Made by a program: the position numbers and the translations under genes. From Candidatus Woesearchaeota archaeon (GTDB lineage: Archaea; Nanobdellota; Nanobdellia; Woesearchaeales; JAWAQC01), in NCBI GenBank assembly GCA_046704905.1, contig JBJKRA010000061.1, positions 1-44,637 of the forward strand: a stretch of 44,637 bases of DNA, given 5' to 3'. Positions 2,856 to 35,344 of the stretch are shown piece by piece. Each line of letters begins with the position of its first letter. Within the stretch, counting starts at the first letter, position 1. The notes beneath the pieces are model-generated. The model searched no databases and had not been told where the DNA came from. It worked only from the letters and a program-made list of their open reading frames with translations.

Positions 2856-2856
2856 G

Positions 2857-8817: not shown

Positions 8818-8842
8818 CCGGCTCCTAGGCTAGCCGGGTGGG

Positions 8843-8850
8843 TATATTAA
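8843..8850 (-). promoter_or_regulatory. TATA box for rio1
   Basis: The minus strand reads TTAATATA, 26 nt from the ATG at 8817. Confidence 0.45.
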
Positions 8851-8880
8851 GATTGCGGGAATGGAACTTAATGTAACAAG

Positions 8881-8889
8881 TTTTATATA
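8881..8889 (+). promoter_or_regulatory. TATA box for the Lrp/AsnC gene
   Basis: TTTTATATA lies 25 nt upstream of the ATG at 8914, which suggests a leaderless mRNA. Confidence 0.5.
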
Positions 8890-8913
8890 CCCCTTTTCCT
8901 GCCATCGGAGCAT

Positions 8914-9375
8914 ATGGTTCACGAAGGAAGCCTCGACGAAAAGGACCTCAAGATCCTCGACATCGTCCAGGAGAACAGCAAGCTCTCGACGCAGCAGATC
9001 TCGAAGAAGACCGGCATCCCCATCACCACGGTCCACAACCGCTTGAAGAAGATGGAGCGCGACGGCGTGATCACCAAGTTCACGGTCCAGGTCAACAGGA
9101 AGATGCTCGGCATCAAGATCACGGCCTTCATCCTCGTCACGATCGACTTCGAGGCCCTGCACGGCGCGAACAAGGACCAGCGCTACCTCTTCAAGGAGCT
9201 GGCCAAGATGCACGACATCGAGTCGGTCAACAGCCTCGCCGGCCAGATCGACCTCATCGTCAAGGTCAACGTCGCCGACATGGAAGGCCTCAACAACTTC
9301 ATCCTCAACAAGCTGCGCACCGTCGTCGGGATAGACAAGACCCAGACCCTCATCGTCCTCGAGAACGTCAAGTAG
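8914..9375 (+). CDS. lrp: Lrp/AsnC-family transcriptional regulator
   Basis: 153 aa. The N-terminal HTH reads LDEKDLKILDIVQENSKLSTQQISKKTGIPITTVHNRLKKMERDGVI. The C-terminal part is an AsnC-type ligand domain. Confidence 0.92.
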   Translation: MVHEGSLDEKDLKILDIVQENSKLSTQQISKKTGIPITTVHNRLKKMERDGVITKFTVQVNRKMLGIKITAFILVTIDFEALHGANKDQRYLFKELAKMHDIESVNSLAGQIDLIVKVNVADMEGLNNFILNKLRTVVGIDKTQTLIVLENVK

Positions 9376-12586: not shown

Positions 12587-13702
12587 ATGCCGACCCTCCT
12601 CCTCGTAGCGCCGAACTTCCTGGAACCGACCGCATGGATGGTCTCGGCCTACAAGACCGCGGTCAATCTCCGCAAGTACGCAGGATGGAGGGTCGTCGTC
12701 CTGACCTCGCGCACGCAAGGCAGCAAGGCGCAAGAGACGATAGAAGGCGTCGAGGTCCACCGCACCCCTGCCTGGTACGTCCCCGACCCCTTCAACTACA
12801 CGGTGACCCCGCGCATATTCTCCGACGCGGCAAGGCTCATCAGGCAGGAGCATCCGGACGCGATCCTCGTCAGCAAGTACATGTTCTTCTCCTCGCTCGT
12901 CGGCCTCCAGTGCAGGCTCAGGCGCATCCCCTATTCCGTCCAGACCGACACCTTCCCCGGCTACGACTGGTTCGCGCCTTCGAGGGTGCTCAACGCCTTC
13001 CTCTGGATATATACGCGCACCCTCGGAAAACTCGTGCTCAGGGGGGCGAAGAAGGTCTTCCTGCTCCACGACGGCCTCATCCCGACGGCGAAGCGCCTGC
13101 ACCTTCCCTATAAGGTGATCCCTAACGGCATCGATCCGGAAGCCTTCGCAAAGGCAGGACCGGCGAAGGACCTGGTCTCCTACAAGAAGGACGCGCTCCT
13201 CGTCACCTACCTCGGCAGGCTCGACGAGGTCAAAGGCTACAAGGCAGTGCTCGACGCCGCGGAGAGGCTCAAGGCAAGGCATGACATCCGCTTCCTCTTC
13301 GTCTGCGGCGACAAGTATCCGGAGAAGAGGAAGGGACTCGAAAAGGAGTACCCCTACATCAGGTTCGAGGGCTTCAGGAAGGACATCCCCGCGGTCTTCG
13401 CAGCGTCCGACATCCATGTGCTCGCGTCCTACGCGGAAGGCCTGCCCAACTCCGTGCTCGAGGCCATGGCCGCAGGCTGCGCGGTGATGGCGACATCCGT
13501 CGGCGCGGTGCCCTATCTCATAAAGGACGGGAGGACCGGCGTGATCATCAGGGATAGGGGCAGGATCTCGGACAGCATAGAGAGGCTCGCCAGGGACAGG
13601 GAACGCCTCAGGGCGGTCGCGAAGGCAGGTCAGGAGAAGGTGCTGCAGGACTACAGCTGGCGGCGTCTCGCAGGAAGGCTCGCCGGGGAGCTCGCCAGAT
13701 GA
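12587..13702 (+). CDS. glycosyltransferase family 4 (GT-B)
   Basis: 371 aa. The C-terminal motif is EGLPNSVLEAMAAGCAVMATSVGAVPYLIKDGRTGVII. Confidence 0.88.
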   Translation: MPTLLLVAPNFLEPTAWMVSAYKTAVNLRKYAGWRVVVLTSRTQGSKAQETIEGVEVHRTPAWYVPDPFNYTVTPRIFSDAARLIRQEHPDAILVSKYMFFSSLVGLQCRLRRIPYSVQTDTFPGYDWFAPSRVLNAFLWIYTRTLGKLVLRGAKKVFLLHDGLIPTAKRLHLPYKVIPNGIDPEAFAKAGPAKDLVSYKKDALLVTYLGRLDEVKGYKAVLDAAERLKARHDIRFLFVCGDKYPEKRKGLEKEYPYIRFEGFRKDIPAVFAASDIHVLASYAEGLPNSVLEAMAAGCAVMATSVGAVPYLIKDGRTGVIIRDRGRISDSIERLARDRERLRAVAKAGQEKVLQDYSWRRLAGRLAGELAR

Positions 13703-15198
13703 GGAAGGCCCTCGTCTGGACGCTGCTCGCCCTCATCATCCTGGGCGGCCTTGCGGCGAGGCTCGCCACGGTGGGCGGAACGTTCGACACCGACACCAGC
13801 TATTTCCATCTGCGATGGATCGAGCAGATCAGCACCACCGGGAAGTTCAGCTACTACGACACGCTCAGCTACGGGGGCAGGCCCTACTACTACCCGCCCT
13901 TCTTCTACGGCTTCATGGCGCTCGCCACGAGGCTGACCGGGCAGGGCGCGCGCTACATCCCGCTGCTATTCGCCGCGCTGCTCCCCCTCATCGTCTTCCT
14001 GCTCATCAGGCACTTCAAGGCCGGCGACTGGGCCGCGCTCGCCGGCGGCGCGATCACCGCCACCGTCCCGGTCCTGTTCACCTATCTCAACTTCACGATC
14101 GAGCCGGTCAGCTTCGCGCTGCCGCTCTTCTTCCTCTGCCTCTACGCGTTCCTCAGGGTGCGCAGCGACAGCAGGGTGGTCAACTGGTACCTCGCCCTCT
14201 TCATCCTCTTCACGCTCACCTCGGCGTTCTCGCTGCTCTACGTGCTCACGCTCTTCATCTACCTCATCCTCACGAGGATAGAGGGCAAGCGCATCGCCAA
14301 GAAGGAGCTCGAGCTCTTCCTCTTCTCGCTGTTCTTCTCCTCATGGTTCTACAGCCTGGTCTACCAGAAGCTCCTGCTCTCCGAAGGGTTCGGCATCCTC
14401 TGGAGGAACATCCCTGCCTCGCTCTTCGCCTCCGTCTTCAAGGACTTCACGCTCGCGACGCTCCTGCCGAGCATAGGGGTCCTGGTCTTCCTCGTCGGCA
14501 TCTACATGTGGTACAAGACCGTCTTCTCCTACAACGAGAAAGGGTTCTTCCTCCTCGCCTCGGGCATCCTCCTCATCCTGGTCGGCATGGTGACCAAGGT
14601 GCTCACGCCCCTCGAGGGCCTGCTCTTCGGAGGTGTCTATTTCGCCGTGCTCTCCGGCATCTTCCTCGCGAAGCTCCGGGAGAAGATCATGACGACGAAG
14701 TTCGGGAAGTACGCCTCATGGATCGCCGTGGCGGCTTTCCTCGTGATAATGGCGACGAACGTCGTGGCGATACAGTACGCCCTGGCGAACAGGACCGTCC
14801 CCCTGACCGCTAGCGAGGAGAGGGCTTTCTCGCTGATGCGCGAGTTCTCGAAAGGCCAGTCGACGGTGTTCGCGCCCTGGTTCTACGGGAACGCCATCAC
14901 CTATTTCGCGGGCCACAAGGACGTCATGGACGACGTCTTCCTCGGCATCACCGATGCGGACATGAGGCTAGCGGACATCAGGGAGGCGTACACCACTCCC
15001 TTCGAGACCGAGGCGCTGCAGATCTTCTCCAAGTACCAGGCGAAATACCTCGTGGTCTCGGACCGCATACTCGCCGCGTACCGCATCAGCGGCGTCTCCT
15101 ACGTCAACGACAAGAATTGCTTCAGGCCGGAGTTCGAATACCATGGTGTGGAGGTCTACCAGATAACATGCACGCTGGAGAACTACAGGACAGGCTGA
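13699..15198 (+). CDS. polytopic GT-C membrane glycosyltransferase, short STT3/AglB-like
   Basis: 499 aa with about 11-13 hydrophobic helices, followed by a soluble tail of roughly 100 aa. The first loop reads FDTDTSYFHLR (13786-13815), which resembles the STT3/AglB D-x-D...YxHxR motif. PWFYG (14875-14889) sits where WWDYG would be. An ATGA overlap joins it to the upstream GT4. Confidence 0.6.
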   Translation: MRKALVWTLLALIILGGLAARLATVGGTFDTDTSYFHLRWIEQISTTGKFSYYDTLSYGGRPYYYPPFFYGFMALATRLTGQGARYIPLLFAALLPLIVFLLIRHFKAGDWAALAGGAITATVPVLFTYLNFTIEPVSFALPLFFLCLYAFLRVRSDSRVVNWYLALFILFTLTSAFSLLYVLTLFIYLILTRIEGKRIAKKELELFLFSLFFSSWFYSLVYQKLLLSEGFGILWRNIPASLFASVFKDFTLATLLPSIGVLVFLVGIYMWYKTVFSYNEKGFFLLASGILLILVGMVTKVLTPLEGLLFGGVYFAVLSGIFLAKLREKIMTTKFGKYASWIAVAAFLVIMATNVVAIQYALANRTVPLTASEERAFSLMREFSKGQSTVFAPWFYGNAITYFAGHKDVMDDVFLGITDADMRLADIREAYTTPFETEALQIFSKYQAKYLVVSDRILAAYRISGVSYVNDKNCFRPEFEYHGVEVYQITCTLENYRTG

Positions 15199-16544
15199 AG
15201 AAGGCATTGCGGCAGAGCTGGACCGCAGGCATAGCGGCGGCGCTCCTCCTCGCCTCCGTTCCCCTGATACGATGGAAGGAAGGCCTGCCCTTGCTGACAG
15301 GACGCTGGCCGTACTACCACGAGTACGTGGCCCTGCATTTCATGGGGTTCTTCGAGCAGGGCCAGGTCAGCGCCTACCATTTCCTCGTCTATATCGGCTC
15401 TTACGTCCTCCCCGTCCGTTATGTCGAGGCCCTGCTGCCCTGGATGTTCGGCGTCGCCGCCATCCTCCTGTTCGGCGCCCTGCTCAGGCGCCATACGGGC
15501 GCGGAGGAGCGGATCACGATCCTGCTCGTGACGGCAGCCTCGCCGCTGTTCCTCTATGCCTTCATCTACGCGACGCCATTCTCGGTCAGCGTGTTCCTCC
15601 TCCTGCTCTTCGTGTACTCGCTGGACCGGGCCTCGCATTGGAGCTACCTGCTCGCGCTGCTCATAGGCCTGGCAGGCGTCGTTGACAGCGCGATCGCGTT
15701 GCTCGTCGTCTATCTCTTCTACCGCACGGACAGGAAAGGCTACAGGACGGGAGCCCGCATCATAACGGCGCTGCTCGTCCTCGCGAACGCCACGTATGCG
15801 CTCCTCTTCTGGAGGCTGAACATCGGGAGCCAGCTGATGGTCGTCCCAGGCCTCAACCAGATGCTCATCGGCATAGGGGTCATCGTCGTGCCGCTCGCGG
15901 TCATCGGCATGATGGAGAGGGCGAGGAGGAAGGAGACGGCCATGATCGTCGCGACCCTTGCCGCCGCGGCCATAGGCATCGCGCTGCTCCAGACGCTCCT
16001 CCTCTACGCGGTCTTCGCGGTCATGTACTACGCCGGCATCGGCGCCGACCGGCTGATCAGGCGGCACTGGTCCTTCGCGGAGGTGCGCACGATCACCCTC
16101 ATCGCCTTCGGCTGTGGCATCCTCTTCTCCGGCCTCGTCTTCCTCACGGCCGCGGTGCACGCCGGTCCCACGACCGCCATGGCCGACGGGCTCTCCTGGC
16201 TGCGCGCCCAGCCGGATGGCACGGTCCTGAGCGCCCCCATGTACGGGTTCTGGATACAGGACATCGCAGGCAAGGAACCCTTCTGCAGCGACCTCTCCTG
16301 CGACAGTGCGCTCTTCGCGAACATGACAGAAACGAGGGACCTCTCGAAGGCGAAGGCCCTCCTCTCGCAGGCCGGCATACGCTACCTGCTCATCACGCCG
16401 GAGATGGAGAAGGGCCTGGTCTGGGCAGAGAAAGGGCAGGGGTTGGAGTTCCTGCTGACGAACAACGACACCTTCACGGAGATCTACGCCGGCCGCAATA
16501 TGGAGATCTACAGGGTAGATGCTACGGACGCTTCCGTACCCTGA
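15168..16544 (+). CDS. polytopic GT-C-like membrane protein, divergent paralogue of the preceding gene
   Basis: About 458 aa from ATG 15168; the start is uncertain and the ORF opens at 15117. Loop 1 reads GRWPYYHEY with no acidic pair. The C-terminal SAPMYGFWIQDIAGKEPF (MYGFW at 16239-16253) parallels FAPWFYGNAITYFAGHKDV in the upstream gene. Confidence 0.55.
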   Translation: MHAGELQDRLKKALRQSWTAGIAAALLLASVPLIRWKEGLPLLTGRWPYYHEYVALHFMGFFEQGQVSAYHFLVYIGSYVLPVRYVEALLPWMFGVAAILLFGALLRRHTGAEERITILLVTAASPLFLYAFIYATPFSVSVFLLLLFVYSLDRASHWSYLLALLIGLAGVVDSAIALLVVYLFYRTDRKGYRTGARIITALLVLANATYALLFWRLNIGSQLMVVPGLNQMLIGIGVIVVPLAVIGMMERARRKETAMIVATLAAAAIGIALLQTLLLYAVFAVMYYAGIGADRLIRRHWSFAEVRTITLIAFGCGILFSGLVFLTAAVHAGPTTAMADGLSWLRAQPDGTVLSAPMYGFWIQDIAGKEPFCSDLSCDSALFANMTETRDLSKAKALLSQAGIRYLLITPEMEKGLVWAEKGQGLEFLLTNNDTFTEIYAGRNMEIYRVDATDASVP

Positions 16545-17073: not shown

Positions 17074-18060
17074 TCACTGCGGCCAGATCAGGATCTTGGA
17101 CTTGCGCACGACCGCCGGCGTCTGCCCGTCCAGGTACGTGATCGCGCCGTCCTTGGGCACGAAGGAGAGCTGGAACTGCGTGTCCTCAGGGATCATGTTC
17201 GTCGAGTTGAGCTTGTAGTAGAGCACCATCGACTCCCCTGCCTCGAGGATGGGGTTGCTGTTCCCGATCTTGACCACGTAGCAGAAGAACCGGTCGGGGA
17301 TCAGGTTGTTGAAGTTGCAGATGTTCTCCCTAGGGAACTGCGTGACGTAGAACGAGTCCGCGCTTGTCGGCGAGATCTCGTTGCTCGTGTTCACGGTGAC
17401 GTTGCCTGTCACGTACCCGTAGATCTCCTGGCCGATCATGACCGGCACCTGGTCGAGCGAGAGGTTGACCGGCGTGGTCGAGGCGTTCCTGATATACGTC
17501 CCGAGGCTCGCGTTCGCTATCCCGATGCCGCTGATGTTGAAGAGCAGGTAGTCCGCCGTCGCGCCTTCCCCGACCTTGACGTAGTCGGTGATCTGGTCCT
17601 TGTTCATGTCGTCGGGAAGCGCCGTCCAGCTCGTGTTCGTGATGTTGTAGTCGGCGAACGACATGTTGAACGCGCTCACAGAGCTGTGCTGCAGCGTCGC
17701 GGAGAGCGCCACCTCGTTGGACGAGTAGGAGAGCGCCATGGTGCGCAGGTTCACTTCCGATGCGCCCGGACGCAGCCTGACGCCGATCTCGAGCTGGTCG
17801 ATGCTGCCGGTCGCGTCGCTGTTCGCGCTGATGTCGCTGTTGCCGTACACTTCGGTCACCTCGAGGCCGGTCAGGAGGCGCTGGCGGGCCTGGCCTGCGA
17901 CGGCGTACGAGCGCTCCTGCAGGACGCCCGAGGTCTGGATGATCACGCCCGCCGCGATCGCCGCGGTCAGGATGGTCGCTATGAAGACGATCAGCGTCCC
18001 TATACCGACGAATGCCTTGCGCCGTGCGCGGCTGCAGAAGAGGAAGTTACGGTGCTGCAT
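17074..18060 (-). CDS. arlB: archaellin (archaeal flagellin)
   Basis: 328 aa. The N-terminus, RKAFVGIGTLIVFIATILTAAIAAGVIIQTSGVLQ, is the conserved class III signal peptide plus hydrophobic archaellin domain. The protein contains 10 N-x-S/T sequons. Confidence 0.9.
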   Translation of the reverse strand: MQHRNFLFCSRARRKAFVGIGTLIVFIATILTAAIAAGVIIQTSGVLQERSYAVAGQARQRLLTGLEVTEVYGNSDISANSDATGSIDQLEIGVRLRPGASEVNLRTMALSYSSNEVALSATLQHSSVSAFNMSFADYNITNTSWTALPDDMNKDQITDYVKVGEGATADYLLFNISGIGIANASLGTYIRNASTTPVNLSLDQVPVMIGQEIYGYVTGNVTVNTSNEISPTSADSFYVTQFPRENICNFNNLIPDRFFCYVVKIGNSNPILEAGESMVLYYKLNSTNMIPEDTQFQLSFVPKDGAITYLDGQTPAVVRKSKILIWPQ

Positions 18061-18107: not shown

Positions 18108-18116
18108 TTATATAAA
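18108..18116 (-). promoter_or_regulatory. TATA box for the archaellin gene
   Basis: The minus strand reads TTTATATAA, 48 nt upstream of the ATG at 18060. Confidence 0.4.
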
Positions 18117-18264
18117 TGTTTCGTTTCGTGAGAGTGCGGCGTGAAAAAAGAGGGAGCATGCATGGCTGCTCAGGGTCCATGGGATAGGATTGCGTGGGCA
18201 GTTCTTATTAAGGTTTATCTGTCACCAAGGCATGACAACAAACATTTATTAAAACCGGCCCGCT

Positions 18265-19410
18265 GTGAGAAGGCCATTCGAGTCAGGGGGGAAGTGTGTG
18301 GGATACAGCGATAGGAGGAAAGCGGCAGACCCTTTCTACCTGCAGGACGGCAGCGCGCTCTGGACGCTTCAGGACCTGCAGCAGACCATCGCCGTCATGG
18401 ATGACGGCTTCTACCGTTTCTACGCGAACGAGAGGAAGAATGACTTCGCCCACTGGATAGAGCACGCGTTCGGTCTTCACAATCTCGCCAGGGCCATCAG
18501 GTACAAGGGGAGGGCCGCGGCGGCAGAGACGCTGCAGCAGTACCTCCAGGAACCGCAGCAGGATGAGGTGGAACCATCGGACAGCGTCAGCTCCGAGCTC
18601 GCTTCGATAGAGCGCCAGATCGAGGAGGCGGAGGACGACCTCGGCGAGAAGGAGCAGCAGGGACGCAGGCAGGCGATCCCGCCCCTCATCCTCGAGGACC
18701 CTATAAGGAGGACCTCTGAGCTTGTCCGCTTCGATGAGGAGGAGGAGGCCGGGCGTCATGCGGAGGAGGCGCCCGAACCGGCGGACGACCGGTTGGGGAG
18801 AAGGCTTTCCTACTTCAACAGCAAGGTCAAGGAGATAGGTACCCAGGTCGACGCGCAGCACACGCTCCTCGAAAAGAAGGACCAGGAGATCGCCGAGATG
18901 CGCAGCGCCATGGAGCGTCAGCAAAAAGAGATAGAGAACTACAAGAGGAACCTCCAGCGCATGGTCGACGAGAACCAGCGGATCACCGAGGCCTACCTCA
19001 AGCACAGGGGCAGCGAGGAGCGGGCCGGACGGCTCGAGGAGGAGGCGCAGGAGAAGATCCGCCGCGCGTCAGGCCTCTATGATCGGCTGAGCGCGATGCT
19101 CAAGGACAGGACGATCATCGAGGAGGTCAACAGGAGCGAGCAGGAGAAGGAGCGCTCCATAGAGAGGGAGGAGAGGAGGATAGAGAGCGGCATCGGCGAG
19201 GAGACGGTCGCCGGGCACGACCGCGCAGGCAAGGAGGAGGAGCGCGACGAGATGGCCGGCATAGAGCGGGAGAACCTCAACGAGCTCGCGCGCCTCGAAG
19301 AGGAGATCACGCGCCTGAGCAGGAAGATGGACAACGACTGGGAGAAGTACGAGGGCAAGCTCTTCGCGGCGAAGCGCCATGCGCTCATGTCAGGAGGGAA
19401 GCAACGATGA
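18265..19410 (+). CDS. coiled-coil protein 1 with a small N-terminal globular domain
   Basis: 381-aa ORF that opens at GTG 18265. An in-frame GTG at 18298, preceded by a G-rich SD-like run, is an alternative start. The N-terminal domain reads DPFYLQDGSALWTLQDLQQTIAVMDDGFYRFYANERKNDFAHWIEHAFG. The remainder is E/R/Q/L-rich. Confidence 0.7.
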   Translation: MRRPFESGGKCVGYSDRRKAADPFYLQDGSALWTLQDLQQTIAVMDDGFYRFYANERKNDFAHWIEHAFGLHNLARAIRYKGRAAAAETLQQYLQEPQQDEVEPSDSVSSELASIERQIEEAEDDLGEKEQQGRRQAIPPLILEDPIRRTSELVRFDEEEEAGRHAEEAPEPADDRLGRRLSYFNSKVKEIGTQVDAQHTLLEKKDQEIAEMRSAMERQQKEIENYKRNLQRMVDENQRITEAYLKHRGSEERAGRLEEEAQEKIRRASGLYDRLSAMLKDRTIIEEVNRSEQEKERSIEREERRIESGIGEETVAGHDRAGKEEERDEMAGIERENLNELARLEEEITRLSRKMDNDWEKYEGKLFAAKRHALMSGGKQR

Positions 19411-21620
19411 GCATGCTCCAGAGGCGCGAGATCGAGACCGCTATCAAGAAGATCAGGAGACTGAACAATCACTACCAGCGCCTTGAGCTCGACCAGCAGG
19501 AGCGGCTCAAGGGGATCGAGTCGCGTGAGCAGGAGCTCGCGCAGGCGCTCGGGCAGGAGAAGCTGCTCAAGGAGGATATCGTCCGCAGAGAGACAGAGCT
19601 TGCAGCCAAGGAGCGCGAGCTCAAGGCGCTGGAAAGGACGCTCGAGAGGAGGTCCACCCATCAGGAGGAGCGGGTCATGGAGCTGCACGCCAGGGCGGAG
19701 CAGGAGAAGGCCCGCCTCGAGCAGCTGACCGCATCGATCGCCTCCCTCAAGGAGGAGCGCGACGCCCTGCGTAAGGAGAAGAGGACTGCGGACAACGAGC
19801 TCTCGGCGACGCGGACGGAGCTGCAGAAGGCGCAAGGCGCGCTTGACCGGCTGCAGGGGCAGCAGCAGGAGGTCTCATCCGCGCTCGAGGAGCAGGCAGC
19901 GCTGCTCAGGAAGACGACGGACGATCAGCAGGCCCTGCAGCGCGCCGTAGAGAAGCAGAAGGCAGTGCAGGAGAGGCTCGTTTCGAAGAAGGAGATGGAG
20001 ATCCAGGCCCTCCTCGACAGGAGGGAGCGTCTTGCCGCCGAGACGAAAGAGAAGGCTGCAGAACTGCAGGCAGGTATCGACGCCAAAGAGGCCGAGCTCG
20101 CTGAGCTGGTGAAGGCCTTCGGGGAGAAGGCGGCAGGGATGAAGGAGGAGGAGCAGGCGCTCGCCAGGAAGGAGGCAGAGACGATAGGGCTCCTCGAAAA
20201 AGAGGCCGCGCAGCTCGTGCAGACGAAGGAGAAGGACGCAGAGCTCCGGAAGCTGGTCGCGGCCAGAGAGAAGGATCTTGCAGGGATCGGGAAGGCTCTC
20301 GAAGAGAAGGTCCAGCTGCTCAAGGAGCACGAGCGCATCGCCGCGAAGAAGGAGCAGGAGATCAAGGCCCTGCTCGCGAGAAGCGAGCGGCTGCAGGAGG
20401 AGACGGAGAGGATCGCTTCAGCCGTCCGTGCAGGGGAGGAGGAGAAGAAACGGCGTTTTGCAGAGCTCGCAAAGGAGTATGACGCGAGGGTGCGCGAGAC
20501 GAAGGACCTGGAACAGGCCTTCGCAAGGCTGGATGCCGAGAAGGCGAAAGAGGCCGAGGCCCTCGGGCAGCTGCAGATGCAGAAGAAGGAGGCAGAGCAG
20601 GCGGCCGCCGAGGCGAAGTCCATGGAGCAGCGGCTCGCGGAAAAGGCCCGCGCGCGCGAGAAGGCCATGAAGGAGGCAGAGCAGGCACTCGCAAGGAGAG
20701 AGAAGGAGCAGGAAGGGATGCTCGCAGAAAAGCTCAGGGCGCACGAGAAGGCCATGAAGGAGGCAGAGCAGGAGTTCGCCAAGAGACAGAAGGAGCAGGA
20801 GCAGCTGCTTGCAGGGAAAGCGAAGGAGCAGGAGAAGGGCATAAGAGAGAGGGAGCAGGAGCTCTCGCGGCTCGGCAGGGAGGCAGAGAGGCTCAGGGCC
20901 GTCGTCGACAAGCTCCATGCAGAGGAGCAGGGGATAAAGGATGTCCTCGAGCAGCGCTACGCGCCGCTCCGTGAGAAGGAAAAGGAGCTTGCCGCGCGCG
21001 CGTCTGCGCTCGGAAAGGGGCAGGAGGCCCTCGCGAAAGAGAGGACAGGCCTTGCCGGGGAGCAGAAGAAGGCCGCCGAGGAGAGGAAGAAGCTCAAGGA
21101 GGACGCGAGGAAGTTCAAGGCGATCCACAAGCAGTACATCACGCTCATAAGGAAGAAGCAGAAGGAGCTCTCCGTCCTGACCAGGGAGATGGAGAAGCAG
21201 AAGGCCGAGGCCGGAAAGGAGATCGCGAAGAGGAAGGAGGCGGAGCAGGCAAGGCTGACCGCAGAGAAGGAGCACAAGAACCTCTCGGAGAGCATCGCAC
21301 TCCTCGCCCAGCAGCGGCGCCTCGCCGACGAGGCGCTCGCCAAACGCAAGGCAGAGGCAGATGCGCTTGCCAGACAGGCCAAGGCGAGCGTTGGAGAGAT
21401 TGAGAGGAAGGCCGAGGAGCTCGCCGCAAGGGAAGGCGAGCTGTTCAGGAAGGCGACCGATCTTGCCGAGCAGGAGCAGCGCCTCTCCGCGAAGGACAAG
21501 GAGCTGCAGCTGCGCGAGGATGAGCTCGCCGCAAAGGAGCGCGAGCAGAAGGGCATCGACGCCGAGCTCAAGAAGAAGGAGCAGGACCTCCTCGCCAGGC
21601 AGCTGGAGATGAAGTGGTGA
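19407..21620 (+). CDS. coiled-coil protein 2 (737 aa, E/K/A/L/Q/R-rich throughout)
   Basis: An ATGA overlap joins it to the upstream gene. I see no TM segment, no Walker motif and no globular domain. It contains internal repeats of 29 aa and about 120 aa. Confidence 0.8.
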   Translation: MSMLQRREIETAIKKIRRLNNHYQRLELDQQERLKGIESREQELAQALGQEKLLKEDIVRRETELAAKERELKALERTLERRSTHQEERVMELHARAEQEKARLEQLTASIASLKEERDALRKEKRTADNELSATRTELQKAQGALDRLQGQQQEVSSALEEQAALLRKTTDDQQALQRAVEKQKAVQERLVSKKEMEIQALLDRRERLAAETKEKAAELQAGIDAKEAELAELVKAFGEKAAGMKEEEQALARKEAETIGLLEKEAAQLVQTKEKDAELRKLVAAREKDLAGIGKALEEKVQLLKEHERIAAKKEQEIKALLARSERLQEETERIASAVRAGEEEKKRRFAELAKEYDARVRETKDLEQAFARLDAEKAKEAEALGQLQMQKKEAEQAAAEAKSMEQRLAEKARAREKAMKEAEQALARREKEQEGMLAEKLRAHEKAMKEAEQEFAKRQKEQEQLLAGKAKEQEKGIREREQELSRLGREAERLRAVVDKLHAEEQGIKDVLEQRYAPLREKEKELAARASALGKGQEALAKERTGLAGEQKKAAEERKKLKEDARKFKAIHKQYITLIRKKQKELSVLTREMEKQKAEAGKEIAKRKEAEQARLTAEKEHKNLSESIALLAQQRRLADEALAKRKAEADALARQAKASVGEIERKAEELAAREGELFRKATDLAEQEQRLSAKDKELQLREDELAAKEREQKGIDAELKKKEQDLLARQLEMKW
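20637..20897 (+). repeat. 3 x 87-bp (29-aa) in-frame tandem repeat within coiled-coil gene 2
   Basis: The units start at 20637, 20724 and 20811. A 28-nt block, GAGAAGGCCATGAAGGAGGCAGAGCAGG, is identical at 20658-20685 and 20745-20772. The peptides are AEKARAREKAMKEAEQALARREKEQEGML, AEKLRAHEKAMKEAEQEFAKRQKEQEQLL and AGKAKEQEKGIREREQELSRL... Confidence 0.85.
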
Positions 21621-21622
21621 TC

Positions 21623-23794
21623 ATGCCGCTCTTTGGAAAGCAGAAGGGCCCCGAAGAGCATCTCGCCGAGCTTGAGGCTTCAGGCATGCTCAGGCGTTTC
21701 GTCGAGGACCATAACGGCATCTGGAAGTACCGCGACTGGCTGGCGTTCCTCGACACCCTGCAGCAGAAGGGCTATCAGGGCATACCGGCGGACAGGATCC
21801 TCGACCGGCTCAACGCCGAAAAGGACGCATACTTCAAGGAGGTGCTCGCCTTCCCCGGCGAGCGCCCGGCAAGTGCAGAGGAGAAGAAGGAAGAGCCAAA
21901 AGAAGAGAAAGGGCAAAAGGGGAATAAGAAGACGTTCTTCGGGATATCCGTCCTTCCCGACAGGCCAAAGGAGGAGGGGAAGGACACCGCTCCCCAGAAG
22001 GAGATCATCACGCTCTTCTCCGAGAGGAAGCGCCTCCTCGCAGAGGAGGTCGCGGAGCTCGAGAGGAAGAGGAAGGAGTACAAGGTCGAGCTCCTGCGTA
22101 AGGACAAGGACCTTTCCGGGAGGGAGGAGAGGCTGCGCCGCGACCGCGAGGCCCTCGAGAAGGAGAAGGAGGCCCTCCATGTCCGCGAGGACCAGTACGC
22201 GAAGGAGCGGGGAGAGCGCCTCGATGCCATCAGGGAGCTTGACAAGAAGGTGAGCGGCCTCAAGGAGGAGAGGAAGCGCCTTGCATCGGACACTGAGGCG
22301 GCGCAGGCGGAGCTCGAGAAGCTCAAGCGCTACAACGACCTCAAGAAGAGCAAGCTCGACAACATAGACCATATCATAGAGGCGAAGATCGCGGACCTGC
22401 AGCACCAGAAGCAGGAGATCGGCAAGCAGGAGGACCTGATCAAGAAGCTCCTCGACAACATACAGACAGAGAGGAAGAAGCTGCGCGAGAAGGAGAACGA
22501 CATCGCGGGGAGGGAGCACGAGATGCACCTCGCCGAGATAAGGGAGAAGGCGGAACAGGACAGCGCCAAGCAGTTCGCGAAGCAGCTGCGCGAGGAGAAG
22601 GAGAAGATCGGGCGCGAGATGCGCGACATCGAGCTCCGCAAGCAGAGCGCGAACTACGAGCTCGACAACCTGCGCACGGTCAAGGAGACCCTCGAGAACG
22701 AGGTCAACGCCCTGCGCCAGGAGAAGTACAAGCTCCAGCAGGCGACGCTCTCCGAGGCGAACAGGAACGAGGCCGACCGCCAGGCCATATCCGAGGAGAA
22801 GGAACGCCTGACGATAAAGGGCCATGAGCTCGACCAGCGCGAGAACGCCCTCAAGAAGGAGCGCATGCTCCTCGACTACAACAAGAAGCAGCTCGAGGAG
22901 ATGAGGAGGAGCCTGGAGGAGCAGAAGCAGAGCGCGACCTACCTCCAGCACGAGGACATCAACGAGAGGGAGCGCGAGCTAGGGAGGCGCGAGTCCGACC
23001 TGAAGGCGAGGGCTGACATGCTCGAGCAGAAGAGCGAGGAGCTCGCGGCCCTCCAGCAGCGCATGCTCGACAAGGAGGATCAGCTCACCCACGCGCGCGA
23101 GGCGTTCAAGGTGCAGCAGACGAGCAGCCAGGAGACCCGCCACAACGTGCTCCTCGCCGAGCTCAAGGAACGCGAGGCGCGGATCAAGGAGCTCACCGAC
23201 CTGCTCGCGGCCAAGGAGAAGGTGCTCGCAGAGACCAGGGACGAGCTCTCCGAGAAGCATGCGCAGCTCAGGTACTTGGGCACCCGCGGCGGCGATGAGG
23301 AGGAGAAGAAGGCGCTGCAGGAGCGGATCAGCCATCAGGAGGAGCTCCTGCGCATCAAGGAGCGCGAGCTTTCGGGCCTGCGCCAGCGCCAGCAGGCGCC
23401 CGTACAGCAGGCGGACGATCGTAGGGTGGCGCTCCTCACCGGTGAGATGCGGGACCGCGAGCGCGAGCTTGCCGAGACCAAGAGGCAGCTCGAGCAGAAG
23501 GAGCAGCGGATACAGGAGCTTACGACCAGGCTCTACCGGAAGGAGCAGGCTAAGGACACCCTTATGCCGGGATCGCTCAAGGGCATAGAGGATCGGAAGA
23601 TCGAGCTCGAGCAGCGCGAGCGCAAGCTGCGGGAGAAGGAGCAGCACGTCCTCGCGACCATGAAGGAGGTCAACAAGCGCTCCCTGATCCACTACATCGA
23701 TAGCCTCATAGAGAAGGGCTACGACCAGAAGGTCATCAAGGGCAAGCTCCTCGAGGCCGGCTGGACGCCGGAGACCATACGCGAGTTCCTCTGA
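21623..23794 (+). CDS. coiled-coil protein 3 with small N- and C-terminal globular ends
   Basis: About 723 aa from ATG 21623, which lies 2 nt after the upstream TGA; the ORF opens at GTG 21614. The N-terminal end reads GIWKYRDWLAFLDTLQQKGYQGIP. A coiled coil of about 550 aa follows. The C-terminus reads SLIHYIDSLIEKGYDQKVIKGKLLEAGWTPETIREFL. Confidence 0.8.
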   Translation: MPLFGKQKGPEEHLAELEASGMLRRFVEDHNGIWKYRDWLAFLDTLQQKGYQGIPADRILDRLNAEKDAYFKEVLAFPGERPASAEEKKEEPKEEKGQKGNKKTFFGISVLPDRPKEEGKDTAPQKEIITLFSERKRLLAEEVAELERKRKEYKVELLRKDKDLSGREERLRRDREALEKEKEALHVREDQYAKERGERLDAIRELDKKVSGLKEERKRLASDTEAAQAELEKLKRYNDLKKSKLDNIDHIIEAKIADLQHQKQEIGKQEDLIKKLLDNIQTERKKLREKENDIAGREHEMHLAEIREKAEQDSAKQFAKQLREEKEKIGREMRDIELRKQSANYELDNLRTVKETLENEVNALRQEKYKLQQATLSEANRNEADRQAISEEKERLTIKGHELDQRENALKKERMLLDYNKKQLEEMRRSLEEQKQSATYLQHEDINERERELGRRESDLKARADMLEQKSEELAALQQRMLDKEDQLTHAREAFKVQQTSSQETRHNVLLAELKEREARIKELTDLLAAKEKVLAETRDELSEKHAQLRYLGTRGGDEEEKKALQERISHQEELLRIKERELSGLRQRQQAPVQQADDRRVALLTGEMRDRERELAETKRQLEQKEQRIQELTTRLYRKEQAKDTLMPGSLKGIEDRKIELEQRERKLREKEQHVLATMKEVNKRSLIHYIDSLIEKGYDQKVIKGKLLEAGWTPETIREFL

Positions 23795-23829: not shown

Positions 23830-24840
23830 TCATGCCCTGACCCGCTCGTACGACGCCTTCTCCAGGCGGTTCGTGATGGCGAGCCCTATGCCCTTGGCGG
23901 CGATGGACTCCGAGAGCACCACCTCTATCCCGTTCCTGTCGAACGAGCGCAGCGCCGCGAAGAGGTTGTGTGCGATCTCCTCCTCTGTCGCCCCGAGGTA
24001 GATGGTGAGCATGGAGTCGTACCAGCGCTCGCTCGTGGTGAGCACGCCGATACGCATGCGGCCGTACTCCTTGAGCAGCGAGTTGATCTTTTCGCCGACC
24101 TTCTCGGGGCTGCCCTCCACGATGATGACCTTGGCCTTCGGCGCGTAGTGCCGGTACTTCATGCCGGGCGAGCGCGGCGGCTCCTTGCCTTTCTGCCGGT
24201 ACTGCTCGACCGCCATGACCTCGTTGAGCATCTCGAGCGTTATGCCCCCTGGCCGCAGCAGCAGCGCGGGCCTGTGCGTGAGATCAACCACCGTCGATTC
24301 GAGACCTATCGCGCACGAGCCGCCGTCTATGATGATGTCGACCCTGCCCATCAGGTCCTCGATCACGTGCGCTGCCGATGTTGGACTGGGTCTCGTAGAG
24401 AGGTTCGCGGAAGGCGCGGCGATCGGGGCCTTCGCCGCGCGGAGCAGCGCACGCGCGACCGGATGGCTCGGCATCCGTACCGCGACAGTGTCCAGGCCTG
24501 CGGTGACGGCATCGGGCACCCCTTCCTTCCTCCTGAGCACCATGGTGAGCGGCCCCGGCCAGAAGCGTTCCGCAAGGAGCCTGGCCTCTGGCGGTATGTC
24601 CCTGGCGAGGAGGCTGAGTTCAGAGATGTCCGCGACGTGCACGATGAGCGGGTTGTCCTGCGGCCTGCCCTTCGCGGAAAAGATCTTCGCTATGGCCTTC
24701 GCGTGGAGGGCATGCGCGCCGAGGCCGTAGACGGTCTCGGTCGGGAAGGCGACGAGCCCGTCCCTGTTGATCACCTTCGCTGCCGCCCTGACGAGGGCAG
24801 GGTCAGGGGCGGAAGGGCTGATCGCAAGGATCCTGGTCAT
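23830..24840 (-). CDS. sua5: L-threonylcarbamoyladenylate synthase (Sua5/TsaC, two-domain form)
   Basis: 336 aa from ATG 24840 (MTRILAIS). YrdC motifs are FPTETVYGLGA, KGRPQDNPLIVHV and SANLS. A C-terminal Sua5 domain is present. The longer ORF to 24978 overlaps the neighbouring gene. Confidence 0.92.
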   Translation of the reverse strand: MTRILAISPSAPDPALVRAAAKVINRDGLVAFPTETVYGLGAHALHAKAIAKIFSAKGRPQDNPLIVHVADISELSLLARDIPPEARLLAERFWPGPLTMVLRRKEGVPDAVTAGLDTVAVRMPSHPVARALLRAAKAPIAAPSANLSTRPSPTSAAHVIEDLMGRVDIIIDGGSCAIGLESTVVDLTHRPALLLRPGGITLEMLNEVMAVEQYRQKGKEPPRSPGMKYRHYAPKAKVIIVEGSPEKVGEKINSLLKEYGRMRIGVLTTSERWYDSMLTIYLGATEEEIAHNLFAALRSFDRNGIEVVLSESIAAKGIGLAITNRLEKASYERVRA

Positions 24841-24884
24841 GGGAGGACGCTGGGACGTGCGATGGTTTATATGTGTTTTTCTTT

Positions 24885-25922
24885 CTAGATGTGGCGCAGC
24901 ACCTGCTTGGTGAACTCCTTCTTGTCGCTGACGTCCTTGACCTTGTTGAAGAGTTCCGGAGACGTCTCCTCGAGCCACAGGAGGATGGCGTCGCGCTGTG
25001 AATCGAACGCCTTGCCGTCCAGCGCCATCAGCGCGTCCTCGAGCTCCGTGAGGTTAGTGATCTCCTTTCCGGCCAGCGTCAGCGCCGCCTTCTTCTTCTG
25101 CTTGCCCGCATTGGCGAACGCGGCAAGGCCTTGGGCGATCTCCGGCATGGCCTTCGCCGCATCCTCGGCGCCTTCCTGCTTCTCCGGCTCGAGCTGGAAA
25201 TCGCGCAGCGACTCTCCCGACTCGACGAAGGGGTTGAACTGGTTCGTGACGACCTCGTAGAGGCCGATGAACTTCTCCATGTTCTTCTCGAACTCCGAGA
25301 GCTTCTTCTCCAGGTTCTCGTTCTTCTCGCGGATCTCCCAGACGACCTTCTCCATGCTCTCGATCCTGGGCTCGAAGCTCTTGGTCTTGACGTTGAGGTT
25401 GTTCGTGATGTTGATGAGCTCCTTGATCTGCTGCAGGATCAGGTTCATCACGGTCCGCTGTTTCTTCGCCTCCTCGCTGTCCTGGACCCTCGAAGGCGCA
25501 GGGGCGGCAGGCGCGGCCATCGCCACGGGCGCAGCCGCCTGCATAGGGGCTGCGGACGCGCCGGGGGCCGCCGCCGTCTGGCGCCTGCTGAGCGCGAGCG
25601 CCTTCTCCGTGTCGCTCATGACCAGGAGCAGCTCGTCGATCAGCTTCTTGTTGGGGTTGGGGATCGGCCTGATGAGCTGGACGAGGAGGGCCTTGGTCGT
25701 CTTCATGACCTCGTCCTTGTTGACGAGGTTGGCGGGCATCGCGGCCGTCTGGCTGATGATCGTGAGCAGCTCGTCGATGAGCCTCTGGTTCGGCTGGGAG
25801 AGAGGGGAGACGAGGTCCTCGATCAGCATCCTCGCGCGGCGGACCAGGAGCTCGCGATGGTCCTCCGGATCCAGCAGTTCAGGGTCCAGCCGTTTTTTCT
25901 TGAACAGGTCGCCTATAGCCAC
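24885..25922 (-). CDS. coiled-coil protein with a FlaC-like NPF motif, an internal N-terminal duplication and an Ala/Pro linker
   Basis: 345 aa. The duplicated segment is VSPLSQPNQRLIDELLTIISQT / IRPIPNPNKKLIDELLLVMSDT. The linker is AAAPGASAAPMQAAAPVAMAAPAAPAP. The coiled coil ends in FIGLYEVVTNQFNPFV. The C-terminal domain, LTLAGKEITNLTELEDALMALDGKAFDSQRDAILLWLEE, resembles the N-terminus of the 18265 gene. The FlaC relationship comes from memory of the motif and has not been searched. Confidence 0.65.
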   Translation of the reverse strand: MAIGDLFKKKRLDPELLDPEDHRELLVRRARMLIEDLVSPLSQPNQRLIDELLTIISQTAAMPANLVNKDEVMKTTKALLVQLIRPIPNPNKKLIDELLLVMSDTEKALALSRRQTAAAPGASAAPMQAAAPVAMAAPAAPAPSRVQDSEEAKKQRTVMNLILQQIKELINITNNLNVKTKSFEPRIESMEKVVWEIREKNENLEKKLSEFEKNMEKFIGLYEVVTNQFNPFVESGESLRDFQLEPEKQEGAEDAAKAMPEIAQGLAAFANAGKQKKKAALTLAGKEITNLTELEDALMALDGKAFDSQRDAILLWLEETSPELFNKVKDVSDKKEFTKQVLRHI

Positions 25923-28705: not shown

Positions 28706-30560
28706 ATGTGCGGCATACTCGGATTCAATTGGACAGATAGAGCCCTTGCACAGAAGATAGGGAACACGCTTGCGCATCGTGGTCCCGATCAGGAGGGTTA
28801 CTATGTCGATAAGCTGCTTACCCTCGGCCAGAGAAGGCTGAGCATCCTCGATTTATCGGAGAACGGGCGCCAGCCCATGTGGGACGAGAAAGGAGAGATT
28901 GGGATAATCTTCAACGGCGAGATATTCAATTTTCAGGAGATCAAGGACGACCTAGTCAGGAAAGGCTACAGGTTCAGATCGACGTCGGACACCGAAGTCA
29001 TCATCTACGGCTACAGGGAATACGGGACTAAGATTCTCGAGAGACTCAATGGCCAGTTCGCATTCTGTATTTATGATAAGAGAGAGAGAAAACTGTTTCT
29101 GGCGCGCGATCGGATAGGGATAAACCCCCTCTACTACTACTTGAAGGAGGATAGGTTCATCTTCGGTTCCGAGATGAAGGTCATTATGGAGGCTGGCGTC
29201 GAAAAAGAAATCGACGAGTTCTCGCTCAACCATTACTTCATGTATGGTCATACGCCGAGGAAGCGGACGATCCTTAAGGACATTTACAAGCTCGAGCCCG
29301 GGCACTACTTCATATTCGATCTCGAAAAAAAGAAAATAAAGGACTACCGGAGATACTGGAGCTTTACATTCAAGGACGATATCAAGGATGAAGAGACCGC
29401 AAAGAGGCTCATCCTGGACCAGCTCGAAAAATCGGTAAAGTCGAGAATGATCTCTGATGTACCGGTAGGAGCCTTCCTTTCGGGCGGTGTCGACAGCTCG
29501 GCCGTCGTCGCTATGATGAGCAGATACACGAAAAATCTCAACACCTTCTCTATCAAGTTCGACTACGACGATTTCGACGAGAGCGAATACGCGGAGATGG
29601 TATCAAAGAGATTCAAGACAAGGCATCATGTCATAGAATTCACGGCAGAAGACGTGAGAGAGCTCATCCCTAAACTAGCCTACCATTATGACGAGCCCTT
29701 CGGCGACTCATCCATGATCGCGACGTATCTTGTCTCGAAGGTCGCGAGACAGCATGTTACGGTCTCCCTGTCAGGGGATGGCGGCGACGAGCTCTTCGGC
29801 GGATACCAGACCTACAAGAATTACCGGATGCTCAATTACGCGAAACTCGTGCCGAGGTGGCTGAGCAGACTCGCGTATAACGTCCTCAACATCTTCCCGT
29901 TAGAGGCCCTTACCCTTCCGAAGGCCTTCTTCGAGATTGCTTCCCTGAAAAGAGAGCTGCAGTACGCGAAAATAATGAGCTACCTGAGCGAGAAGGAGTT
30001 CAGGGCGATAACAGGCAAGGATCCGGAACCATACTACACGGATTACGCAGAATCCTACAGGCGTGACGCTTTTCTCAACGAGGCGATCGGATCGGACATA
30101 CAGAATTATCTTCCGGACGATATCCTGACCAAGGTTGGACAGGGCATCGCTGGGCAACAGCCTCGAATCAAGGCCCCCTATACTCGACCATGAGATGGTA
30201 GAGCTGGCGGCCAGGATAGAGCCGGGCCTGAAACTAAAGGGTAACGAGGGAAAGTATATTTTCAAACGGGCTTTGGAAGGTATCCTTCCAAAGCAGATAC
30301 TGTATCGCAAGAAGCAGGGCTTCGGCGTCCCCCTAAAGCACTACTTCAGGAACGAATTACGGAGCATGGTAGAGAAGCACGTCCTCGACTACAAGGGGCA
30401 CGGTTACATCAGGGAGGAAATCCTGGCTGAGATCAGGAAGAATCTCGACAAGAGCCATTGGGAGAAGGACTATTCGAGGATCATATGGAGCATAATGACG
30501 TTCAATATGTGGTACGAGAGATGGTTTCTCGGGAAGGAGATAGATGGGAAAACAGCCTGA
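28706..30560 (+). pseudogene. asnB: asparagine synthase (glutamine-hydrolysing)-like amidotransferase, split by a 1-nt insertion
   Basis: The N-terminus has the Ntn nucleophile (MCGILGF) and the PP-loop motif FLSGGVDSS. The frame breaks at AAGGTTGGACAGG (G at 30137/30138): frame 1 reads LTKVGQGIAG... and stops at 30193, whereas the +1 frame reads (L)DRASLGNSLESRPPILDHEMVE... through to 30560, which is the conserved AsnB C-terminus. Confidence 0.85.
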
Positions 30561-31383
30561 GATTTCTGTCCTTATGTCCGTCTACAATGAGACGGAGACG
30601 GATCTGAAGCAAGCGATAGAGAGCATCTTAGAGCAGTCGTTCGAGGATTTCGAGTTCATTATCGTGCTGGACAATCCGTCGAGCGATATGTTAGAAAGGA
30701 TTATCAGACAGTACCAGAAGAAGGACAAAAGAATCACCTTCATAAAGAACAACAAAAACAGAGGGCTGGCCGCTTCGTTGAACAGAGGATTGGCCGTAGC
30801 AAAGGGCAGGTATATCGCGCGGATGGACGCGGATGATATCGCTGTGAAGGAACGTTTTGAGAAGCAGTATGCATACATGAAGAGTCATCCCGAGATTGAT
30901 TTTCTGTTCAGCTGGAGCCATTTCAGCGACGAGTCTGGAAAAATGCTCCCCGAAAGGATCTTACCGAAAGACATCAATACTAAAGGCATCTTCGAGAAGC
31001 GAAACTATTTCATCCACCCGACACTCATGGCAAAGCGAGAAGTTCTGACGAAGGAAAGGTACGATGAGAGATTTCTCCGGTCGCAGGATTTCGAGTTGTG
31101 GATGAGGACGCTTCCAAAATACCGTTTTTGGGTTATGCGAGAAAAGTTATTGCATCATAAAATCCCCAACAGTGCTGATTACAAAGGCAGAACAAGAAAA
31201 ATGAAGATTATGACATCCTGGGCTATGAAGGGTCTTAACAAGAATATGCGTCTTTATAGGACAAGCCTTTCATATTGGGGATTCTATGCAAAAACACTCA
31301 CACTCTTTGTAGCCGTAAGACTGCCGGCGAGTGTCCTTAAAATTATACTTCTCATAAACAGAGTTGATAGAAAAAAGGCGTGA
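30544..31383 (+). CDS. glycosyltransferase family 2
   Basis: 279 aa. Motifs are ISVLMSVYNETE, FIIVLDNPSS, and the DxD motif in RMDADD. Confidence 0.9.
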   Translation: MGKQPEISVLMSVYNETETDLKQAIESILEQSFEDFEFIIVLDNPSSDMLERIIRQYQKKDKRITFIKNNKNRGLAASLNRGLAVAKGRYIARMDADDIAVKERFEKQYAYMKSHPEIDFLFSWSHFSDESGKMLPERILPKDINTKGIFEKRNYFIHPTLMAKREVLTKERYDERFLRSQDFELWMRTLPKYRFWVMREKLLHHKIPNSADYKGRTRKMKIMTSWAMKGLNKNMRLYRTSLSYWGFYAKTLTLFVAVRLPASVLKIILLINRVDRKKA

Positions 31384-31438
31384 GAATGGGATAAGGTGGG
31401 AGTTAGATGCTGATATCAAAAATGGAAAAGAAACGACC

Positions 31439-33555: not shown

Positions 33556-33559
33556 TAAA

Positions 33560-35323: not shown

Positions 35324-35344
35324 GGATACTGTCGGGCAAGAAGC

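Follow-up and report, generated by a model that had tools for sequence, protein, structure and literature searches.

The cytosolic part of the archaellum motor varies from one archaeal lineage to the next: Crenarchaeota have ArlX as the ring component and Euryarchaeota have ArlCDE, whereas that of Thaumarchaeota has yet to be identified (PMC8978795). The proteins of the polar cap are not known (PMC8978795). In canonical arl clusters, the genes lying between the archaellins and arlH/I/J encode this variable cytosolic ring or switch (PMC8978795; PMC4858521), and some archaeal type IV pilus (T4P) loci also encode coiled-coil cytoplasmic proteins (PMC4858521). Here, we describe three adjacent genes (ORF1 to ORF3, referred to together as the trio; positions 18265 to 23794) on a 44,637-nucleotide contig from a Candidatus Woesearchaeota archaeon (JBJKRA010000061.1, assembly GCA_046704905.1; the whole stretch is called the window below). 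They encode long coiled-coil proteins and stand head to head with an archaellin gene. With moderate confidence, we favor the view that the trio is an operon conserved in a sparsely sampled DPANN lineage and that its products are cytoplasmic, rod-shaped coiled-coil proteins serving an archaellin-type type IV filament machine. The three proteins would then be functional analogues, not homologues, of ArlX and ArlCDE.

The trio consists of three plus-strand open reading frames (ORFs), located at 18265 to 19410 (ORF1), 19407 to 21620 (ORF2), and 21614/21623 to 23794 (ORF3), with predicted products of 381 (probably 370), 737, and 723 amino acids (aa), or 1,841 aa in sum. A first-pass annotation of this DNA had described the three as coupled on one strand, and positions, junction letters, and codon-position composition all agree with it. 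ORF1 and ORF2 overlap in an ATGA at 19407 to 19410, with GGAGGG 10 nt upstream; at 21618 to 21625, the TGA of ORF2 is followed by TC (2 nt) and then by ATG. The G+C content (GC) is 0.85 to 0.90 at third codon positions (GC3) and 0.31 to 0.38 at second positions (GC2) in ORF1 to ORF3, and because this combination of high GC3 and low GC2 is that of the other real genes of the 60% GC contig, we regard the trio as real coding frames. Antisense ORFs overlapping the trio have the mirror-image pattern. The true start of ORF1 is probably GTG 18298, which is preceded by GGGGGGAAG, and not GTG 18265: a TATA-like box at 18246 to 18255 lies only about 19 nt from the latter, which makes the downstream codon the likelier start. 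A start at 18298 would also fit the N-terminal length of the closest relative (P0002, described below).

In composition and periodicity, the three proteins are those of a coiled-coil system. The residues E, K, R, Q, A, L, and D account for 62% of ORF1, 81% of ORF2, and 71% of ORF3. In a sliding 28-residue test, the hydrophobic contrast at heptad positions a and d stands about 6 standard deviations above that of shuffled sequences (z of about 6), and at a strict threshold 54%, 66%, and 62% of the residues of ORF1, ORF2, and ORF3, respectively, are heptad positive (10 to 32% in shuffles). This upholds the first-pass annotation of an operon of nonenzymatic coiled-coil proteins; its wording "almost pure coiled coil," on the other hand, holds for the rod, which makes up roughly 80% of the 1,841 aa (about 1,450 to 1,500 aa), and not for the remainder, which consists of three end domains and two low-complexity linkers. 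ORF1 (381 aa, or probably 370 aa with the start at GTG 18298) has a globular domain of about 100 aa, an acidic, proline-containing linker of about 70 aa, and some 200 aa of coiled coil; in a single-sequence AlphaFold2 (AF2) model, long helices span residues 173 to 246, 251 to 279, 282 to 311, and 321 to 376, and a Foldseek search with this full-length model matched only long-helix proteins, at E values above 3. ORF2 (737 aa) is essentially a single helical rod with one proline (residue 520); within it, at 20633 to 20864 (plus strand), an 87-bp (29-aa) unit is tandemly repeated in 2.4 copies (Tandem Repeats Finder, 79 to 85% matches, score 244 to 252). ORF3 (723 aa from ATG 21623) begins with a domain of about 80 aa and a K/E/P linker of about 45 aa, continues as a rod of about 550 aa, and ends in a small helical domain. 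No transmembrane (TM) segment was found in ORF1 to ORF3 (maximum 19-residue Kyte-Doolittle mean, ≤0.34), no Walker A motif ([AG]xxxxGK[ST]) occurs in them, and neither ORF2 nor ORF3 contains a cysteine. Exact-sequence lookups of ORF1 and ORF2 matched no record.

What carries our reading is gene order. Trio-type genes are linked to an archaellin gene in four loci (the window, L138, L144 with its short copy L145, and L149), each with the archaellin gene on the minus strand, a divergent region of 157 to 250 bp, a DUF5752-coiled-coil gene on the plus strand, and a further coiled-coil gene after it. The archaellin of the window is 54%, 43%, and 37% identical to those of L138, L144, and L149, respectively, and stands head to head with an ORF1 orthologue each time; orthology of the latter is based on the N-terminal domain of ORF1, which is 44 to 56% identical to its counterpart in L138 and 33 to 37% identical to those in L144 and L149. 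The genomes are distant from one another, as judged by MBF1, only 37% identical, and by GC (60% in the window, 38% in L138). L138, a 10.6-kb contig of a Woesearchaeota metagenome-assembled genome (38% GC), carries GT4 (52% identical to window positions 12587 to 13702), MBF1 (37% identical), and archaellin and, divergently, P0002, a pure coiled coil of 464 aa at the ORF2 position, and an orthologue of ORF3. P0002 is a full-length orthologue of ORF1 (N-terminal domain, E = 1e-30; C-terminal rod, E = 3e-15), and the ORF3 orthologue (7848 to 9335) is 38% identical over its first 190 aa (E = 5e-33). After about 205 residues, the latter changes from coiled coil to a Cys/Pro/Thr-rich sequence (8460 to 9335) and ends in LPQAG plus a hydrophobic helix, an arrangement that resembles a sorting signal. 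Either the domains have truly been exchanged here or the sequence is chimeric; the GC profile has no clear assembly break.

The locus that says most about function is L144, a 13-kb Joint Genome Institute contig. It contains the N-terminal part of an ArlC-like gene and archaellin and, divergently, P0083 (a DUF5752 unit plus coiled coil), three further coiled coils of 187, 549, and 427 aa, a T2SSE ATPase, and two T2SSF platform genes, the plus-strand genes being spaced 12 to 45 bp apart. The 549-aa protein (3505 to 5154) is 53% identical to the C terminus of ORF3 over its last 49 residues (E = 6e-15) and also matches the rod start (E = 5e-11). The best NCBIfam model for the ATPase is the archaellum motor FlaI, at 277 bits. 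L149, a 2.3-kb contig, holds archaellin and, divergently, the ORF1-like P0134 and a coiled-coil ORF that overlaps P0134 by 4 nt, so that the ATGA type of translational coupling is kept there as in the window. We regard the trio as a functional module because the pairing of archaellin with a DUF5752 rod gene and a second rod gene after it is kept in four loci that share little else and whose housekeeping proteins are about 37% identical, because the rod genes of L144 lie between archaellin and the ATPase and platform genes, and because an ArlC-like protein with the same module type accompanies the set in rearranged order. The first-pass annotation had proposed a cytoskeletal, polar-scaffold, or cell-cell-contact structure; the synteny of L144 points to something narrower than a cytoskeleton or cell contact, namely, an accessory or scaffold part of an archaellin-type filament machine.

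Few relatives of this locus were found. A word-indexed homology search with full-length ORF1 returned ORF1 itself, the same search with the N-terminal domain alone returned nothing, and one with a five-sequence profile of that domain returned small stand-alone DUF5752 proteins only. Anchoring on the neighboring Sua5 gene gave mostly Firmicutes plus one unrelated archaeon, with no synteny, and with MBF1 as the anchor, 57 loci came up, all at ≤42% identity and none with any other window protein. Pattern scans of GTDB with the ORF1 and archaellin alignments found one contig (L138/L139), and two metagenome scans yielded nothing or one spurious match (L140). That these word-indexed searches and pattern scans came back nearly blank indicates a lineage that is barely sampled.

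The N terminus of ORF1, judged by its sequence, is a single DUF5752 (PF19027) unit (18328 to 18555, plus strand; aa about 22 to 97) with a KNDFxxW motif and a predicted fold of a β hairpin plus five helices. ORF1 itself reaches only 13.9 bits on PF19027 (E = 0.034, over 28 residues), below the 23-bit gathering score. An exhaustive HMMER (phmmer) scan with residues 1 to 110, however, found 591 cluster representatives at E ≤ 1e-3, mostly from Woesearchaeota, the closest being P0002 (55% identical); among the relatives, P0004, P0005, P0006, and P0007 (E = 1e-13 to 1e-16 to ORF1) score 28 to 44 bits on PF19027, above the gathering score. In the source databases, the matches are annotated with PF19027 (precomputed hits) and are named "DUF5752 family protein" by NCBI; almost all are from Candidatus Woesearchaeota. 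In the alignment of the domain, K58, N59, D60, F61, and W64 are invariant, and a profile search of the six-frame-translated window gave one unit in ORF1 (aa 27 to 97 of the translated segment). An AF2 model of residues 15 to 100, built with a 58-sequence multiple-sequence alignment, has a pLDDT of 92.9; its top three Foldseek matches are chains of 4cso (probability up to 0.90, TMq of 0.57, E = 0.13, and a high root mean square deviation because 4cso has two units), and no other fold comes near 4cso in the ranking. 4cso is OrfY of Thermoproteus tenax, the only solved DUF5752 member. ORF1 has in common with the DUF5752 family the KNDFxxW motif and is significantly similar to members scoring above the gathering threshold; it differs in having one unit, whereas OrfY and the 208-position Pfam model have two. 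The setting differs too: the classical stand-alone members lie in glycogen or trehalose gene clusters and ORF1 lies in a filament locus.

DUF5752 units occur in a variety of contexts. Some stand singly or as tandem copies; others precede a C-terminal membrane anchor or long coiled coils (P0002, P0027, P0076, and P0083), are fused to KaiC-type ATPases (P0007), or lie at the ends of giant membrane proteins. Stand-alone genes at 8001 to 8934 of L141, 8001 to 8375 of L142, and 3915 to 4289 of L143 lie inside Woesearchaeota glycogen-metabolism clusters, surrounded by GT5/GT4 glycogen synthases, GH57, phosphorylase, and debranching enzyme. This setting echoes that of OrfY in the trehalose operon of T. 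tenax, and the domain may have a sugar-related role there. In the contexts examined, no filament genes surround P0006 (coiled coil plus two DUF5752 units), P0209 (DUF5752-KaiC), or P0027. In L146 to L148 (positions 1 to 7832), P0006 comes directly after a 523-aa ORF and a giant ORF of up to 6,753 aa, both without a Pfam match. Literature searches on DUF5752 and OrfY found nothing.

The rest of the trio is conserved at its ends and not along its length. The positional counterparts of ORF2 in L138 (464 aa), L144 (187 aa), and L149 have only a short N-terminal motif in common with it, and ORF2 does not align significantly with the 464-aa protein (E = 0.3). A rod that barely aligns between relatives follows the pattern expected of a spacer or scaffold. 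The rod-start motif ERKxLLxEEIAELEKKRKE is conserved between loci. The N-terminal domain of ORF3 (21653 to 21847, plus strand; LEASGM...HNGIWxYxDWLxFLDTxQxKGY) is 56% identical to its L138 counterpart over 65 aa, and the C-terminal helical domain (23645 to 23791, plus strand; RSLxHYIDSLIxKG[YF]...EAGW...) is the part that is 53% identical to the C terminus of the L144 549-aa protein. Neither end has a match in Pfam, NCBIfam, or the PDB. A DUF5752-like nature of the two domains was ruled out (hhalign probability below 1%). A "helix-KGY" motif may be common to both ends, a weak match (E = 0.011 over 16 columns). The C-terminal domain may resemble UBA domains.

Upstream of the trio and divergent from it, the archaellin-family gene (17074 to 18060, minus strand) encodes 328 aa with a class III signal peptide-like N terminus. 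Its product scores 83 bits on Pfam Arch_flagellin (PF01917), matches an NCBIfam flagellin subfamily, and reaches 21 bits on arch_flag_Nterm (TIGR02537; cutoff of 20). The divergent region holds two blocks. On the archaellin side, a block resembling a TATA box and a B recognition element (BRE) at 18108 to 18126 (minus strand) reads TTATATAAATGTTTCGTTT on the plus strand, TATA-like and then TTTCGTTT, with conserved columns across the four intergenic regions. On the trio side, a BRE/TATA-like block at 18235 to 18255 (plus strand) reads ACAACAAACATTTATTAAAAC, that is, ACAACAAAC and then TTTAWWAAAA, and includes the TATA-like box mentioned above; the block recurs in L144 and L149 and is retained in part in L138. 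The trio-side block is probably the promoter of the trio, and its partner would be that of archaellin; the two may be promoter elements or a site for a shared regulator.

On the other side of the trio, a minus-strand gene at 24885 to 25922 encodes a 345-aa ArlC/FlaC-like coiled-coil protein (Pfam FlaC_arch, 47.4 bits; cutoff, 27.8) with a degenerate C-terminal DUF5752-type unit. The first-pass annotation had placed the trio between the archaellin gene and this second coiled-coil gene; the order is correct, with the qualification that a Sua5 gene (23830 to 24978, minus strand) intervenes. Its further claim that this neighbor shares the domain type of the ORF1 N terminus also proved sound. The copy is divergent: a profile of the DUF5752 unit aligns over the whole unit (hhalign, 82%, E = 1.2e-6), and the KNDF motif is lost. 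The orthologue P0046, which follows archaellin in L151, combines a FlaC_arch domain with two clear DUF5752 units; the sequence EKNMEKFIGLYEVVTNQxNPF is common to it and the window protein. The N terminus of the window protein is 57% identical to the gene after archaellin in L144/L145. In the window, the gene comes after the trio and Sua5; in L144 and L151, it comes directly after archaellin. The ArlC-like gene is thus part of the conserved neighborhood of the trio and archaellin.

How might such proteins work? We propose that the rods assemble beneath the membrane, probably by homo- or hetero-oligomerization, into a structure that could be a scaffold, a ring, or a tether. This structure would surround or underlie the FlaI-like ATPase and the T2SSF platform and take the place held by ArlX in Crenarchaeota or by ArlCDE or the polar cap in Euryarchaeota. 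Docking would fall to the conserved end domains, namely, the DUF5752 unit in ORF1 and the two helical domains at the N and C termini of ORF3, and the rods would be spacers, free to drift in sequence and length (737, 464, and 187 aa at the ORF2 position). The presence of the same DUF5752 module type on the ArlC-like protein suggests a shared docking partner. The filament itself may be a rotary archaellum or an archaellin-derived (adhesive) pilus.

Several observations weigh against a filament scaffold. The evidence on function is all guilt by association, drawn from gene neighborhoods, and the sample is small, namely, four loci, all on short contigs of uncultivated organisms. Continuity with motor genes is seen in one locus only (L144), whose ATPase falls below the 550-bit FlaI equivalog cutoff; no ArlI, ArlJ, or ArlH is encoded in the 44.6-kb window or in L138, and no ArlH (KaiC-like) or ArlF/ArlG was found among the called L144 ORFs or the scanned window ORFs, the contigs being partial. 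Without ArlH and ArlF/G, the L144 machine may not be a true rotary archaellum. ORF1 to ORF3 have no homology to ArlX or ArlC/D/E detectable with Pfam or NCBIfam. The L138 orthologue of ORF3 has its Cys/Pro/Thr-rich tail and a C-terminal TM helix instead of a rod. DUF5752 units are promiscuous, with stand-alone copies in glycogen gene clusters, and P0027, which combines a DUF5752 unit with a coiled coil, is not adjacent to archaellin.

Proteins that consist of long heptad rods capped by short end domains, with no motif of an enzyme, would also befit an intermediate-filament-like cytoskeleton that shapes or stiffens the cell, the adjacency to archaellin being inherited gene order. Part of the synteny is in fact ancestry, given that MBF1 and GT4, which are unrelated to filaments, are also kept near the L138 set, and the window has no motor genes. 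We nevertheless think this explanation unlikely: the head-to-head pairing persists in L144 and L149 despite different flanks, the coiled-coil genes of L144 lie at operon spacing between archaellin and the ATPase and platform genes, and the ArlC-like gene stays with the set when the order is rearranged. Mere expansion of low-complexity sequence in one lineage, with no conserved role, would account for rods that do not align between relatives, that vary in length (737, 464, and 187 aa), and that contain an internal 87-bp tandem repeat. It fails to account for end domains and an ERKxLLxEEIAELEKKRKE motif that are 38 to 56% identical where MBF1 is 37% identical, for conserved gene order and coupling, or for a heptad phase well above that of shuffles, and we hold it to be very unlikely. 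Two outcomes had been named in advance as arguing against a dedicated structure, a characterized family at the termini and a lack of co-conservation; DUF5752, the sole family to emerge, is without a known role, and co-conservation of the genes is seen.

Another possibility is that the trio is a module for regulation, polarity, or chaperoning that positions or activates the machine, as cyanobacterial HmpF does for type IV pili, or controls the synthesis or export of archaellin, in the manner of Helicobacter pylori HP0958. The divergent promoter region shared with archaellin would suit such a role; the 187-aa protein of L144 has a weak, coiled-coil-level match to HmpF (24.6 bits; cutoff, 200), and KaiC-type ATPases, which have ties to T4P regulation, are among the fusion partners of DUF5752 units (P0007). 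A regulatory role was proposed by Makarova et al. for the coiled-coil protein of T4P subclade 4F (PMC4858521). However, a rod of about 1,800 aa in three stoichiometrically coupled genes exceeds the usual needs of a regulator, the HmpF match is compositional and far below threshold, and the KaiC fusion lies outside filament loci, which together make this role quite improbable. An SMC/Rad50-like or other DNA-associated coiled-coil system would explain the weak NCBIfam matches of the rods to SMC, Rad50, and ASRP (7 to 27 bits), but these scores are 20 to 100 times below the cutoffs (567 to 1,000 bits) and cover coiled-coil arms only. Membership in the SMC/Rad50 family was therefore rejected, in keeping with the first-pass annotation: the scan for a Walker A motif was blank, no Pfam ATPase head is present, and ORF2 and ORF3 lack a CxxC, or any cysteine, with which to form a zinc hook. 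We consider such a system exceedingly improbable.

One further idea goes beyond the filament scaffold that we favor. Conceivably, the trio together with the ArlC-like/DUF5752 protein forms an unrecognized cytoplasmic base structure in DPANN archaea, a counterpart of the polar cap or ring, that anchors an archaellin-derived filament lacking ArlH/F/G and used for host attachment and not for swimming. DUF5752 would then be a general docking module for rods, tail-anchored membrane proteins, KaiC ATPases, and giant surface proteins. This is speculative, and we would not expect it to hold in full.

Other features of the window deserve brief mention. A MinD/ParA-type ATPase (6865 to 7617, minus strand; AAA_31, 170 bits) is encoded about 11 kb from the trio; ATPases of the FleN/MinD family are associated with archaeal T4P systems (Makarova et al.; PMC4858521). 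Between GT4 and MBF1/archaellin (13699 to 16544) lie two multipass membrane proteins of 499 and 475 aa with no Pfam match, which could be glycosylation enzymes for the sequon-rich archaellin. Positions 30500 to 36000 form a low-GC island (0.39 to 0.46, versus about 0.60 elsewhere) with several same-strand ORFs of 240 to 420 aa. The island follows an asparagine-synthase-like gene, precedes NAD-epimerase/dehydratase genes, and is possibly a glycan-synthesis cluster gained by horizontal transfer. The aspartyl-tRNA synthetase at 1143 to 2855 is of bacterial type with a GAD domain, and the nearest GTDB relatives of Sua5 are Firmicutes at about 50% identity; both fit bacterial gene imports into a DPANN-like genome. 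At the contig edge (359 to 1255, minus strand), a 298-aa P-loop protein has weak matches to Zot, nSTAND3, and archaeal ATPase_2.

Of all the parts of archaeal type IV filament motors, the cytosolic scaffold is the one that is conserved least and understood least. If the trio does serve such a machine, then it is a concrete candidate set for the motor scaffold in DPANN-type archaea and gives one branch of DUF5752 its first functional context. The DUF5752-plus-rod architecture and the end domains of ORF3 would then be sequence markers for such loci, and the finding could bear on how ultrasmall symbiotic archaea build and anchor filaments, perhaps to reach their hosts. If the link to archaellin is inherited gene order only, these are ordinary coiled-coil proteins without an assigned role.

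Among known systems, ArlX (FlaX) offers the closest parallel in position: it is a nonenzymatic coiled coil encoded between archaellin and arlI/arlJ, and the trio-like genes of L144 occupy the same place in the operon. ArlX is thought to ring ArlH/ArlI (PMC8978795). It differs from the trio in having an N-terminal TM helix and in being a single protein of about 250 aa, where the trio comprises three proteins of about 1,840 aa in sum and no TM helix. ArlC/D/E are, like the trio, soluble cytoplasmic accessory proteins with coiled-coil segments, variable and often fused, and a true FlaC_arch protein (24885 to 25922), with a module type in common with ORF1, stands in the trio neighborhood; on the other hand, ORF1 to ORF3 have no FlaC_arch (PF05377) or FlaD/E match at E ≤ 1, their rods are much longer, and no chemotaxis genes were seen with the trio. 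Of the canonical arl cluster, the window has the archaellin with its class III signal peptide, and ArlI/ArlJ are absent from it and from L138, whereas L144 has T2SSE (277 of the 550 bits for FlaI) and two T2SSF genes.

The bacterial coiled-coil-rich proteins (CCRPs; FilP, Scy, crescentin, and Helicobacter Ccrp) and the T4P polarity factor HmpF share with the trio long heptad rods, short heads and tails, and the lack of an enzymatic motif, and some bacterial CCRPs are linked to motility organelles; there is no homology to the trio beyond composition. The protein arCOG07564 of T4P subclade 4F is likewise an intracellular coiled coil in an archaeal type IV filament locus, but it is halobacterial, a single protein, and of proposed regulatory function (PMC4858521; compared with the trio by description only). 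No paper was found on the trio proteins or on DUF5752 in a filament context. The initial statement that the trio matches no described archaeal system therefore stands at the level of sequence homology and not at that of role, for which ArlX and ArlCDE are known analogues. Lineage-specific coiled-coil accessories of type IV filament motors are a known kind; the set itself and its link to DUF5752 appear to be new.

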